Sequence record: NC_028881.1
Reading direction: 5' to 3' (one strand)
DNA length: 64,000 bases
Origin: Escherichia phage vb_EcoM-VR5
Shown: positions 7,383 to 42,316 of the stretch, piece after piece
How positions within the stretch are numbered: position 1 is the stretch's first letter
Layout: each line of letters opens with the position of its first letter
Position numbers and translations under genes: made by a program
The notes under the pieces: generated by a model
What the model saw: the letters and a program-made list of their open reading frames with translations, nothing else
Told to the model about the DNA's origin: nothing
Databases searched by the model: none

Positions 7383-7419
7383 AATAATTTCCTCAGTTTA
7401 TTAAAATTTATAATCCGTA

Positions 7420-7454
7420 GGACCATTATACTCTGGTCCCAAGAGTTTGTAAAC
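7420..7454 (-). promoter_or_regulatory. early sigma70-type promoter inside a stem-loop (PeSL-like cassette), approximate coordinates
   Basis: RNA sense GTTTACA-N17-TATAAT; -10 box flanked by inverted repeat GGACCA/TGGTCC; SD GAGGAAA and ATG of 7053..7382 follow. Confidence 0.65.
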
Positions 7455-14807: not shown

Positions 14808-14844
14808 AATAATTTCCTCAGTAAGTAATTAAGAACCTAGAACC

Positions 14845-14870
14845 ATTATACCATCCTTGGTATAAAGCGT
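14845..14870 (-). promoter_or_regulatory. middle (MotA-type) promoter-like element, approximate
   Basis: RNA sense aaaCGCTTTA (MotA-box-like, one mismatch to TGCTTtA) - 12 nt - TATAATGGTTCTAGG; overlaps the stop of the upstream gene. Confidence 0.5.
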
Positions 14871-35941: not shown

Positions 35942-36017
35942 TGGTCGAGACAGTAGGGATCGAACCTACGACCTAGGACTTAGAAGGTCCTTGCTCTTCC
36001 TTCTGAGCTATGCCTCG
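35942..36017 (-). tRNA. tRNA-Arg (anticodon TCT, reads AGA); approximate coordinates
   Basis: Hand-folded: acceptor CGAGGCA/TGTCTCG, D arm GCTC/GAGC, anticodon stem AGGAC/GTCCT with loop CTTCTAA, T arm GTAGG-TTCGATC-CCTAC, encoded ACCA end. Confidence 0.75.
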
Positions 36018-36151: not shown

Positions 36152-36225
36152 TGGTGGCCCTGGGTGGAATCGAACCACCATCCAGCGATTATGAGTCGCT
36201 CGCTTGACCGTCCAGCTACAGGGCC
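36152..36225 (-). tRNA. tRNA with CAT anticodon (Met, or Ile2-type reading AUA as in T4); approximate coordinates
   Basis: Hand-folded: acceptor GGCCCTG/CAGGGCC, anticodon stem AGCGA/TCGCT with loop CTCATAA, T arm GGTGG-TTCGATT-CCACC, encoded ACCA end. Confidence 0.7.
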
Positions 36226-38223: not shown

Positions 38224-38264
38224 TTGATAGGTCTATAGTATCATATTTATAAATGCTGTAAACA
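38224..38264 (-). promoter_or_regulatory. PeSL-like promoter cassette with overlapping late-promoter-like TATAAATA, approximate
   Basis: Consensus 20-mer ttgataggtctatagtatca followed by atatttataaat (TATAAATA in RNA sense), then gtaaac. Confidence 0.6.
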
Positions 38265-38953: not shown

Positions 38954-38961
<8 letters not shown>

Positions 38962-39715
38962 TTTTATTTCCTAATAATTTATCAATAGTAGTGTATAGTT
39001 CAGAAAGGGTTCCGTTATTTTCAACAACAACGTCACCAGGTAAAATTGGTAGACCCGCTTCAGTAATGTGCGAGTCTTGTACTTGACCGGTATCAGCGCG
39101 AACTACGTGAATAATCGTAGCACCCATCGCCCTGAGCGAATCAATTTCATGTGTTTGACGAACATCAGGTACGACATAGTATTTCGCATCAGAATATATT
39201 TTATCAAAATAGTCTAAAGCGAATAACTTAACCCAATACATTTTATCAAATTGGTTAACAATAATATCGGTCCCAAGGGTCTGCATGAGACGACGTACTG
39301 ACCAATTGTTAATACTATTTATTACTTCAAACAGATGGTCTTTTGTTTCTTCAGACAAATACTGGACTGGGGTAAGACCATAATGATATGCAGTACGGAC
39401 ATCAATTCCGGGAATAGGAAGCATATTATTCAGTTTAACGATAGCATGTTCAAAGATGTCAATAACATCATATGGTTTTAAAGGAAGGATTTCTTCGCGG
39501 TTGTATCCAATACCTTCAAAACAGTTAAAATCTAGTTTAGGCATATAACTACGATCGAATACAGGGTCATCAGATATATATTCGTAGGCTTCTGCTAGAT
39601 ACTTTTTAATAGGCCCAGCGAGCTGGAATTTAACAGAATCCATATTCTCAATTACATAGTTAGCAACGGTGTCCTTACCGCTACGTTTGAGTCCTACAAT
39701 TGATATTAGTTTCAT
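38954..39715 (-). CDS. 1: deoxynucleoside monophosphate kinase gp1
   Basis: 253 aa; P-loop GLKRSGKDT; WSVRRLMQTLGTDIIVNQFDKMYWVKLFALDYFDK...MGATIIHVVR is collinear with T4 gp1. Confidence 0.9.
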
Positions 39716-40305: not shown

Positions 40306-40316
40306 AGTATTCCTAT

Positions 40317-40380
40317 ATTGCTTAAACCCTAGCCAGTGTATAATGGTCCTAGGTCTGTTCCATTCAATAACTGGCTGGGA
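40317..40380 (+). promoter_or_regulatory. promoter-like cassette in inverted (plus-strand) orientation between genes 3 and 2, approximate
   Basis: Plus strand reads aTTGCTTaa-N13-TATAATGGTCCTAGG; the same TATAATGGTCCTA core occurs in minus-strand promoters at 7420 and 14845; flanked by inverted repeat ccctagccagt/actggctggg. Would drive transcription antisense to gene 2. Confidence 0.4.
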
Positions 40381-40393
40381 TAATAGATTAAGA

Positions 40394-41230
40394 TTATGCG
40401 TTCTTCCAAACTTTCTGAGCTGAGTAACGCTTGCCTTTAGACATGAACTGCTGGAGAGGCATCATTACTACATTAGCCCAATCAGATGGTTTTATCTCTA
40501 CCAAAGGACCTTTTATATTTCCTGGGATATAAGCTTTAATCATCATGTCGGCACCAGAGAATCCTTTAACTTTACTCCAATCTATTTTTAATTTCGTCGA
40601 GTTAGTAATGGTCGGCGTGCTCGCGTATTGCTTCAGCAATTCTTCTAGAAATTGTTGGCGTGCTTTAGGTGGAATATAGTGTAAGTTCAACCCGTACATA
40701 AGATTATGCTTACCAAGCCCTAGATAAATGATTAAAGGATATTTGTCCCAATACGGTAATGTATCCTTGTGTTTGGCATCATAGATATAAGCATAAAGCT
40801 TACCAGGAGATGGTTTAGACACCTGGTGTCCACGAATTCCTTTCTTTAATGTTTCTGTAAACCATTTAGCCGATTTATTGTTTACAGCAGCACCTTCGTT
40901 TGCAATCTTATCACGAATACTCTTTCTAAAACTATTTACCAAAATTAATTGTCGTTCAGCTTTGGTTAATTTATTGCCAGGTTTCTTCTGAAGTTTTTCG
41001 ACTTGTACAGCGGTTTTAATTCGACTCGAGTATCGAGACATCGCAGATGTAAAGCTAGAATACTTGATGCCTTTATCTTCAGCGAATTTCTTAGCCGAGA
41101 CACCTTTAGCCTTAGCTTTGGCATATTCAACACCCAAAGCTATCCATTGTTGTTCTGAACGAGTAGGCTTAGAACCTTTTGTGGTTTCAGTAGCCTCATT
41201 GATGTAGGAAAATATACTCATCCTTTCCAT
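40394..41230 (-). CDS. 2: DNA end protector gp2
   Basis: 278 aa basic protein at the gene 2 position; T4 gp2 is 274 aa; ATG at 41230 overlaps the gene 4 stop. Confidence 0.75.
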
Positions 41231-41667
41231 CCTAATTTTTTCAGTGAGTTTTCAGTTATCAATCTAAAATTGATTCCCATTTTATCTGCTGTGGCTTTAG
41301 CAGCTTTCCATTTATCTTTATTTACACTCCATGTATAATGTTCGTTGATATATCTCTTTTTAGCGGCTGTAGTCATTTTAACAGGCGCCGCTGGAGGATG
41401 GGTTTCTTTAAAAGGTTTGACTTCAAAAAAGAATTGTTGGCCGTTATCAAACTTAACCCAGAAGTCCATAAAATAACGACGTTTCTTTCCATCCGCATTA
41501 CTAAAATATGGGATTATCACTTCCTCCGAATTCCACTGGACCACGTTAGGATGATTATCAAGCCATCGCATGAGCCATGCTTCCCATGAGGAACGATATT
41601 GGATTTTCTTCCAGTCACCTTTATATTTTTGTAAGTTAGTAGGTTTAAATTTCCCTGAGTAAGCCAT
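41218..41667 (-). CDS. 4: head completion protein gp4
   Basis: 149 aa (T4 gp4 150 aa), divergent from gene 53 as in T4. Confidence 0.8.
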
Positions 41668-41678
41668 AGTCGCCTCCT

Positions 41679-41701
41679 TATAAATATTAATATTATTTAT
41701 A
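41679..41701. promoter_or_regulatory. divergent late promoter region (TATAAATA on both strands) between genes 4 and 53, approximate
   Basis: Plus strand TATAAATA about 28 nt before the gene 53 ATG; minus strand TATAAATA about 27 nt before the gene 4 ATG; SDs GGAGG on both sides. Confidence 0.6.
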
Positions 41702-41713
41702 CTCGGAGGCTCT

Positions 41714-42316
41714 ATGCTCTTCTCATTTTTCGATCCTATCGATTACGAATCAAAAACAGTCAAGCCGGATTCAGGCTCATTAACTAATGCCGATGTATTG
41801 AGCGTGCCGATGACTGATATATTTAGAAATTATAAAGAATATTTTGATAAAGTGGCTAAAAATTATACACTAAAAACTCATTACATCAACGGAGCACCTC
41901 GCCCGGAAGAATTGGCCCATATTCTTTATGGTAATGTCCAATTATATTGGGTTCTACTGATGTGTAATAATATATACGACCCTTATTATGGGTGGATTAC
42001 CGGACAAGAAGCAGCATATCAAGCGGCTATCCAAAGATATTCTACCGCTGGCGGAAACCAGGTCCTTTATCATGTTAATGAAAAGGGTGAGAAATTCTGG
42101 AATCTTGTTAACACACCAGAAAATCCATATACTTGGTATGACAAAGGTGATACAGAAAAACGGTATCCTCAGTACGAAGGCCCATTGGCCGCAGTAGATA
42201 TTTACGAGGATGCTATTCGTAAAAATGAATATAAGCGTGAAATAAAAATTATAGACCCTAACGATATCGAGTCTTTTGTTTCTGCTCTTATTCGCGAAAT
42301 GGAGAAAGCCCTCTAA
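41714..42316 (+). CDS. 53: baseplate wedge protein gp53
   Basis: 200 aa (T4 gp53 196 aa), first gene of the plus-strand baseplate block. Confidence 0.85.
   Translation: MLFSFFDPIDYESKTVKPDSGSLTNADVLSVPMTDIFRNYKEYFDKVAKNYTLKTHYINGAPRPEELAHILYGNVQLYWVLLMCNNIYDPYYGWITGQEAAYQAAIQRYSTAGGNQVLYHVNEKGEKFWNLVNTPENPYTWYDKGDTEKRYPQYEGPLAAVDIYEDAIRKNEYKREIKIIDPNDIESFVSALIREMEKAL

Follow-up and report, generated by a model that had tools for sequence, protein, structure and literature searches.

In the middle promoters of phage T4, a Mot box, (a/t)(a/t)(a/t)TGCTT(t/c)A, lies near −30, replaces the −35 element and stands 12 ± 1 base pairs (bp) from a sigma-70 −10 hexamer, TAtaaT (PMC2988021). Phage transcription has its reference system in T4, whose approximately 60 mapped middle promoters each serve a gene or an origin. 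Here we describe a match to this promoter class in Escherichia phage vb_EcoM-VR5, located in a stretch of 64,000 nucleotides (nt) of record NC_028881.1 (termed the window; coordinates refer to it unless another genome is named). The element lies on the plus strand of the non-coding spacer between genes 3 and 2, and its predicted transcript would run antisense to gene 2. It resembles the MotA/AsiA-dependent promoters of T4 in the placement of the Mot box, in the distance from this box to the −10 and in having no usable −35 element. The TGn that is reported to precede the −10 of T4 middle promoters is present in about half of the lineage versions considered below. Unlike the T4 promoters, the element faces a late structural gene in antisense orientation, and there is no open reading frame (ORF) for it to express.

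The nearest precedent is found in phage RB69, for which Nolan et al. (2006; PMC1524935, Additional file 4) list a middle promoter, Pm:79256, predicted by a hidden Markov model (HMM) on the plus strand at 79256–79296. RB69 gene 3 occupies 78666–79250 and gene 2 occupies 79353–80174, and Pm:79256, lying between them, is the positional orthologue of the element in VR5. Its sequence is aaaAACGCTTTA-N12-TATAATGGTTTTAGG. It is known just as an HMM match in a supplementary list, and the section of that paper on middle promoters makes no comment on its antisense position, conservation or hairpin. The element is partly known already, through a single computational prediction in RB69, and lists for T4 omit it.

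Three other kinds of T4-type element invite comparison. PeSLs (Arbiol, 2010; Comeau, 2014; PMC4122927) carry a stem-loop just upstream of a promoter, followed by a Shine-Dalgarno sequence and a start codon, and are repeated and clustered in hyperplastic regions. The VR5 element resembles these and the related PmSLs (in which the promoter consists of a Mot box and −10) in combining a promoter with a stem-loop in an intergenic, insertion-prone spacer. It differs from them in that one arm lies within the promoter spacer and the other at approximately +20, and the stem of its T4-type versions lies wholly past the start. In addition, no ORF follows, and the element is present as a single copy in a conserved structural core. 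The origins oriF (uvsY) and oriG (gene 34) of T4 are likewise middle promoters without an obvious coding task, and oriG is inside a late gene. T4 also makes pre-replicative RNAs opposite late genes, such as repEA and repEB opposite gene 5 at oriE, and has an antisense RNA to gene 32, but these RNAs use other promoters at other places.

A middle promoter motif antisense to gene 2

The VR5 sequence tatTGCTTaA departs from the Mot box consensus at one position, having a instead of t/c after TGCTT, and is separated by 13 bp from a perfect TATAAT. No usable sigma-70 −35 element accompanies the hexamer, as the site is not listed in a sigma-70 consensus scan and TTGCTT stands just 15 bp from the −10. 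A sequence-only reading of the window had noted a plus-strand match to a T4 middle promoter at this place, and direct reading against the published rules confirms it. Because genes 3 and 2 are both encoded by the minus strand, the plus-strand motif is antisense, and RNA from it would run rightwards into gene 2 (Table 1).

The combination GCTT-N14-16-TATAATG occurs four times in the window, compared with 0.25 expected (16-fold), and this number was reached in none of 100 shuffles. The spacer site is the sole plus-strand copy, and the remaining three belong to the minus strand of the early/middle region.

Conservation of the motif among related phages

To the GenBank sequences of T4, RB69, JS98 and dhabil we added 43 related loci from IMG/VR, fetched via gene product 3 (gp3). 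The pattern [TC]GCT-N15-17-TATAAT is found in 35 of the 43 loci on the antisense strand, at most 290 nt upstream of gene 3, whereas the remaining sequence of these loci has a background of 0.009 per 320 nt. A 36th locus, the Ac42-like L037, carries TACAAT instead, which brings the total to 36 loci of approximately 19 lineages. Those with named phages include Gaprivervirus VR20 (L007), Mosigvirus RB69, Gelderlandvirus STML-198 (L029), T4 and Acinetobacter phage Acj61 (L026); a further one, L024, we take to be of the Karamvirus CC31 type.

When 19 lineage representatives were aligned on the −10, the gap between the five-base TGCTN core and the hexamer was 15 nt in 13 lineages, 16 nt in four and 14 nt in two. 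The hexamer is a perfect TATAAT in 18 of the 19, the exception being L037, and most have GG after it, while the bases that separate box and −10 are unrelated among lineages. On the T4 plus strand the element reads AATGCTTTA-N13-TATAATGGG at 75,965–75,994, with a predicted start at approximately 76,000; extended to 76,003, it reads AATGCTTTA-N13-TATAATGGGTCTAAG (75,965–76,003). That box, spacing and a perfect −10 are kept amid diverging intervening sequence favours a working promoter. The element occurs in the same place and orientation in phages from Dhakavirus to T4, RB69, CC31, STML-198 and the Acinetobacter phages, and is therefore ancestral and not the product of a recent backwards insertion. 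The sequence-only reading had also allowed that the spacer might be conserved purely as a sense-strand hairpin; box, spacing and −10 are kept beside the hairpin described below, which does not support conservation purely as a hairpin.

Over a 51-nt core that extends from the −10 to the block beside the gene 2 stop codon, the window is 92–96% identical to L016 and L019. For the coding flanks (the initial 300 nt of gene 3 and the final 300 nt of gene 2), identity to L016, L019 and their close relative L018 is 63–82%, and at third codon positions 44–61%. The uniformity of the core reflects either strong selection on a non-coding stretch or spread between phages, the latter being possible because a homing endonuclease gene sits at the spacer edge in some relatives (see below).

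Phage 04086, which stands nearest to VR5 by gp3 (98.5%), and Dhakavirus WG01 each encode a MotA homologue; by synteny with T4 and JS98, motA of VR5 is expected outside the window. Co-occurrence with MotA proved uninformative as a test, since MotA-encoding phages may lack the spacer and the MotA scan of IMG/VR has poor recall.

A hairpin in the sense transcript

The promoter had been described in the sequence-only reading as bracketed by an 11-bp inverted repeat. A repeat is present, but its arms are 10 nt long and 90% complementary (one non-Watson–Crick pair), or 11 nt long with a bulge, and they enclose the −10 and the start site rather than the whole promoter. The arms are 32 nt apart, and a repeat this good occurs in 6–8% of shuffled or random 88-nt segments, so that by itself it proves nothing. 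In the sense RNA, the fold immediately past the gene 2 stop codon consists of an outer stem of 10 bp, interrupted by one bulge, and an inner stem of 5 bp, AAUGG/CCAUU. The computed energy of this fold is −23.3 kcal/mol (z-score −2.6), compared with a z-score of −1.9 for the plus-strand RNA.

The pairing has been maintained through extensive change in sequence. The inner stem is invariant among seven close relatives, in which one outer pair alternates between A-U, G-C and G-U (A-U to G-C in L016, L018 and L019) and another is often mismatched. The arms are wholly different in VR20-type phages (TCAGTGTTAT/ATAACACTGA) and in L010 (CCCAGTTT/AAACTGGG), and in both cases they remain complementary and still enclose the −10. 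L007 and L010 were judged from per-sequence folds, as MAFFT placed both out of structural register. In T4, CC31, STML-198-like phages and RB69, the stem base CUUCC...GGAAG is conserved and the distal part is variable but compensated; the stem in these phages lies wholly downstream of the predicted start and excludes both the −10 and the Mot box. Sense-strand z-scores range from −1.7 to −4.8 in 14 of 16 lineages that are not of the Acinetobacter type, and they are usually below those of the plus strand. The sense-strand hairpin is real. The stem gives way to GTTTAAGC on the sense strand and to ATAATAGA on the plus strand, with no T-run on either side; the hairpin is therefore no intrinsic terminator, and a scan of both strands of the spacer for such terminators found none.

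Exact copies of the late promoter sequence TATAAATA are confined to the divergent region between genes 4 and 53 (41679–41701) and to 38244–38251 on the minus strand, downstream of genes 3, 1 and 57A. An exact search for this sequence on the sense strand of the gene 3/gene 2 spacer found none. As neither gene 2 nor gene 3 has its own late promoter, the late 4-2-3 mRNA should cross the spacer and carry the hairpin.

Indications of transcription in T4

A time-resolved study of T4 by RNA sequencing (RNA-seq) and proteomics places gene 2 in the class 'middle-RNA, late-protein' and genes 3, 4, 53 and 5 in the class 'late-RNA, late-protein' (Wolfram-Schauerte et al., 2022). Genes with known middle promoters provide a control: genes 57A and 57B, served by P57A, are classed as 'middle', and gene 34, which has the internal middle promoter P34i, is likewise 'middle-RNA, late-protein'. 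The libraries were directional, and reads were counted by featureCounts at default settings (Wolfram-Schauerte et al., 2022). Between 75.4 and 77.4 kb of T4, the two strands together contain a single Mot-type match, which lies on the plus strand of the spacer between genes 3 and 2. The default settings of featureCounts ignore strand. With counting taken as unstranded, antisense reads would be tallied for gene 2, and RNA that starts at the T4 spacer promoter and fades before gene 4 would explain the middle class of this gene. The onset of gene 2 RNA in the middle period, with genes 3 and 4 late, is therefore a hint, and indirect support, that the promoter is used in T4.

Proposed function and the points that weigh against it

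We think it probable, though well short of certain, that the element is a real middle promoter that directs synthesis of a non-coding RNA antisense to gene 2, and that this RNA overlaps the intercistronic hairpin of the late 4-2-3 mRNA. What is seen directly are the motifs, their conserved position, the capacity to form a hairpin and its compensatory changes; that the predicted promoter fires, and in a MotA-dependent manner, we infer. Host RNA polymerase remodelled by MotA and AsiA would start at approximately 40351 in the middle period, and an untranslated plus-strand RNA would extend antisense through gene 2. A search for a conserved plus-strand terminator near the gene 2/gene 4 junction gave a weak candidate in the window (41286–41303) and none in T4. 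As no conserved terminator is present, a Rho-dependent end is proposed, probably within roughly 1 kb. No conserved plus-strand ORF was found after the predicted start in the 11 lineages examined, and a 14-codon ATG ORF at 40396 was rejected as cargo because it merely mirrors the gene 2 coding sequence. The segment GGAUAAUAGAU of the plus-strand RNA (40378–40388) agrees with the consensus for strong RegB cleavage, GGAGRAYARAA, in 10 of its 11 positions when GGAU is accepted; it was set aside as a RegB site, the match being poorer and not conserved in T4 and CC31.

Later in infection, mRNA from the 41701 promoter would fold into the hairpin after the gene 2 stop codon, where the hairpin might, speculatively, act as an intercistronic stabiliser or processing signal. 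The product of gene 2, gp2, binds DNA ends. According to a GenBank note, early transcription of T4 comes into this gene block from the direction of oriE and runs on the strand that genes 4-2-3 use; the antisense RNA or convergence of polymerases could therefore suppress premature synthesis of gp2 and gp3. It is a speculative step that either of these keeps gp2 (and gene 3) unexpressed from read-through before the late period. A bolder version, which we regard as doubtful, is that a MotA-driven, middle-period antisense RNA is an ancient, conserved timing device of T4-type phages that restrains gp2, and possibly gp3 as well, until the DNA ends have served replication and recombination, and that in some lineages it is a discrete small RNA with its own terminator.

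Were the preferred interpretation true, a conserved antisense RNA would join the T4 programme, and the earlier appearance of gene 2 RNA than that of its operon neighbours would be explained. A middle promoter would have long been kept in antisense orientation in a late structural block and be missing from the standard T4 promoter lists, and one 60-nt stretch may be constrained on both strands at once. If the promoter is silent, the element is a plain intercistronic hairpin of little interest.

Several points weigh against a functional antisense RNA. The table of 58 experimentally identified T4 middle promoters contains P57A (74877) and P1 (75393) and nothing near 76,000. No mapped transcript start at the spacer site was found for any phage, and no description of a gene 2 antisense RNA was found in the literature; neither search covered the start-site table of the T4 differential RNA sequencing (dRNA-seq) study, which reports 150 phage start sites, 22 of them antisense. 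The hint from T4 RNA-seq is a threshold class label that is coupled to an assumption of unstranded counting. Covariation within the close clade is weak, amounting to one compensatory pair, and 53 of 500 shuffles were as good. Conservation of the core could be due in part to co-conversion by the homing endonuclease that inserts at the spacer. The MotA-encoding phages L027, L033, L035 and L036 have overlapping genes 2 and 3 and lack the element, which is therefore dispensable. Finally, without a conserved terminator or target, any function for the antisense RNA is a guess.

Insertions and repeats in the spacer

The spacer varies in content among relatives. In dhabil (L001), a gene for a 216-amino-acid homing endonuclease, in sense orientation, occupies 1189–1839, and the same insertion is found in L005 and L009. 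The insertion point falls precisely between the gene 2 stop codon and the conserved TAATCTATTATC block, and the promoter/hairpin spacer is undisturbed. The dhabil endonuclease is annotated as such in the record and has no Pfam match. The sequence AGATTA (TAATCT on the sense strand; window 40385–40396) is present as one copy in JS98, as two in the window and as three tandem AGATTAAGA units in L016, and the Acinetobacter-type L038 carries three dispersed copies upstream of gene 3.

Other relatives carry antisense units at this junction. In ELT4 (L074), which we take to be RB49-like, an 84-amino-acid ORF that looks like a coiled coil and has no Pfam match lies antisense between genes 3 and 2 (228–700); a clean intrinsic terminator comes next, just ahead of the gene 2 stop codon. 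In RB43 and KP15, the region upstream of gene 3 holds a gene that is transcribed divergently. In the Acinetobacter-type L038, L043, L026, L032 and L037, the antisense promoter is followed after 150–190 nt by a same-strand GC hairpin and T-run before gene 2. Back-to-back short GC hairpins with GCGCAGC-type loops are found beside the gene 2 stop codon of the Acinetobacter-type relatives, and each strand has a T-run; the arrangement resembles two terminators that serve opposite directions, in which case the antisense RNA would be a discrete small RNA of approximately 190 nt. The block GGTCGGAGAAGATAGAG is common to these five loci. Upstream of gene 3 in L020 and L034, two A+T-rich TATAAGAATAAAGTAATA-like repeats flank a GC hairpin, and there is no Mot-type promoter. 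The gene 3/gene 2 junction so appears to have long been host to a small antisense transcription unit, of which the T-even-type phages would keep a short non-coding leader.

Alternative explanations

The alternative that survives best, which we nevertheless consider unlikely, is that the promoter is active but vestigial, having lost a small antisense gene or RNA cargo that it would still drive in some relatives, and that the residual RNA of T-even-type phages has no role. The ORF and terminator of ELT4, in the same orientation, the divergent gene of RB43 and KP15, and the promoter with its same-strand terminator-like hairpin in Acinetobacter-type relatives are all consistent with such a history, as is the character of the spacer as an indel hotspot, seen in the homing endonuclease and the AGATTA copy number. 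A neutral relic should decay, yet TATAAT is perfect in nearly every lineage and the transcribed core is better conserved than the synonymous sites of the neighbouring genes. Furthermore, T-even-type phages have no conserved plus-strand ORF past the start.

Slightly less credible is the view that the hairpin alone matters, as a means to stabilise, process or attenuate the late 4-2-3 mRNA, with the hexamers kept for that RNA or for initiation of gene 3 translation and the promoter silent. An RNA hairpin acting on the sense transcript had been offered in the sequence-only reading, and the hairpin itself stands, but it has no need of TGCTT at 15 ± 1 nt from a perfect TATAAT. These motifs and their distance do not vary, whereas the arms vary freely, and the stems of T4, CC31, STML-198 and RB69 exclude the −10 and Mot box altogether. 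The pair of motifs also fits a known bipartite promoter class and was detected independently in RB69, and the onset of T4 gene 2 RNA is in the middle period. On the side of the hairpin are its presence right after the gene 2 stop codon in nearly all lineages, a sense-strand fold that beats shuffles and usually the plus strand, the G-U pair of L004, which is tolerated on the sense strand alone, and the need for late mRNA to traverse the spacer.

It is improbable that the element is an origin of the oriF/oriG type, in which the promoter transcript forms a persistent R-loop in a downstream unwinding element and primes the leading strand, perhaps as part of the oriE zone, which lies approximately 3 kb away in T4. 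Both oriF and oriG consist of a MotA-dependent promoter and a downstream A+T-rich unwinding element, and the spacer has the first of these by sequence. The late-gene setting of oriG offers a parallel, and oriE, oriF and oriG all lie near switches in the direction of transcription, as does the VR5 element, with the 4/53 switch 1.3 kb to its right. However, no A+T-rich stretch lies downstream (50-nt windows over 40340–40489 have 52–66% A+T, compared with a window mean of 61%), T4 oriE maps to 79,355 and is ascribed to an early promoter of the opposite strand, and the element is absent from some MotA-encoding relatives.

The sequence-only reading had considered a cassette inserted backwards and had noted the −10 core at two minus-strand promoters. 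The 13-mer TATAATGGTCCTA occurs seven times in the window at no more than two mismatches, compared with 2.8 expected. It is exact at 7418–7430 on the minus strand, as had been stated, but the copy at 14838–14850 on the same strand carries one mismatch (TATAATGGTTCTA). Of these two, the 7430 site has the early-type layout GTTTACA-N17-TATAAT, and the 14850 site the middle-type layout aaCGCTTTA-N12-TATAAT. Similarity of these two sites to the spacer site is limited to approximately 16 nt that comprise the −10, the GG discriminator and the start region, which we read as the optimum of strong T4-type promoters and not as descent from a common cassette. Although the sense-strand order of stem-loop, inverted promoter, Shine-Dalgarno sequence and gene 3 ATG resembles a PeSL with its promoter flipped and the −10 core is common to the two other promoters, a recently inverted mobile cassette of the PeSL/PmSL type is very improbable, given the like position and orientation in some 19 divergent lineages including T4, the shortness of the shared consensus, a layout without the upstream stem-loop and the ORF after the promoter that define PeSLs, and other conserved blocks that are single in the window.

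Short inverted repeats also overlap the −10 of other strong promoters. For example, on the minus strand, TTATACCA/TGGTATAA is found at the middle-type promoter near 14850 (14846–14865), and GGGACC/GGTCC surrounds the early-type −10 near 7430 (7418–7447). Such repeats may be due to chance or may be a common feature.

Features of the locus and its surroundings

The surroundings of genes 3 and 2 resemble those of JS98-like coliphages of the genus Dhakavirus, with vB_EcoM_ESCO10 as the top match (97.2%) and JS98 at 93.6%. The ORFs, together with the JS98 and T4 annotation, give the classic T4 gene order on the minus strand (Table 1).

Table 1. Coordinates of the predicted promoter, the hairpin and the neighbouring features in the window.
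Feature	Coordinates	Strand	Remarks
MotA-box-like element tatTGCTTaA	40316–40325	+	direct reading; [TC]GCT box co-located in 36 of 43 related loci
Box-to-−10 spacer, 13 bp	40326–40338	+	
Sigma-70 −10 hexamer TATAAT	40339–40344	+	followed by GG discriminator and GGTCCTAGG
Predicted transcription start, A	40351	+	7 nt past −10; from promoter geometry
Left arm CCTAGCCAGT	40328–40337		between Mot box and −10
Right arm ACTGGCTGGG	40370–40379		approximately +20 to +29 of predicted plus-strand RNA
Inner stem AATGG / CCATT	40342–40346 / 40360–40364		caps sense-RNA hairpin; overlaps −10 and start site
Conserved block GATAATAGATTA, then second AGATTA	40379–40396		second AGATTA overlaps gene 2 stop codon
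Non-coding gene 3/gene 2 spacer, 88 bp	40306–40393		between two minus-strand genes
Gene 1	38954–39715	−	ORFs and JS98/T4 annotation
Gene 3 (tail completion / tube terminator), 196 amino acids	39715–40305	−	start codon 40303–40305
Gene 2 (DNA end protector), 278 amino acids	40394–41230	−	stop codon 40394–40396; target of predicted antisense RNA
Gene 4	41218–41667	−	
Genes 53 and 5	beyond gene 4	+	
Late promoter for gene 53, exact match	41679–41686	+	
Late promoter TATAAATA upstream of gene 4	41694–41701	−	sole exact late match able to serve genes 4-2-3

An Rfam scan of the whole window at the gathering score returned only two tRNAs, at 35945–36017 and 36155–36225, both on the minus strand, and a scan of the gene 3/gene 2 spacer at E values of up to 10 gave only chance-level matches (E above 1). 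In the ESCO10 record (OM386655.1, 58965–60565), the region homologous to genes 1, 3, 2 and 4 bears the labels of terminase subunits and of tail sheath proteins, apparently through off-register or erroneous annotation. Within gene 53, at 41829–41968 on the minus strand, three sigma-70-like sites with a perfect TATAAT face leftwards to genes 4-2-3, in antisense orientation to gene 53, an arrangement reminiscent of T4 oriE, where early repEA/repEB transcription runs opposite genes 5 and 53.

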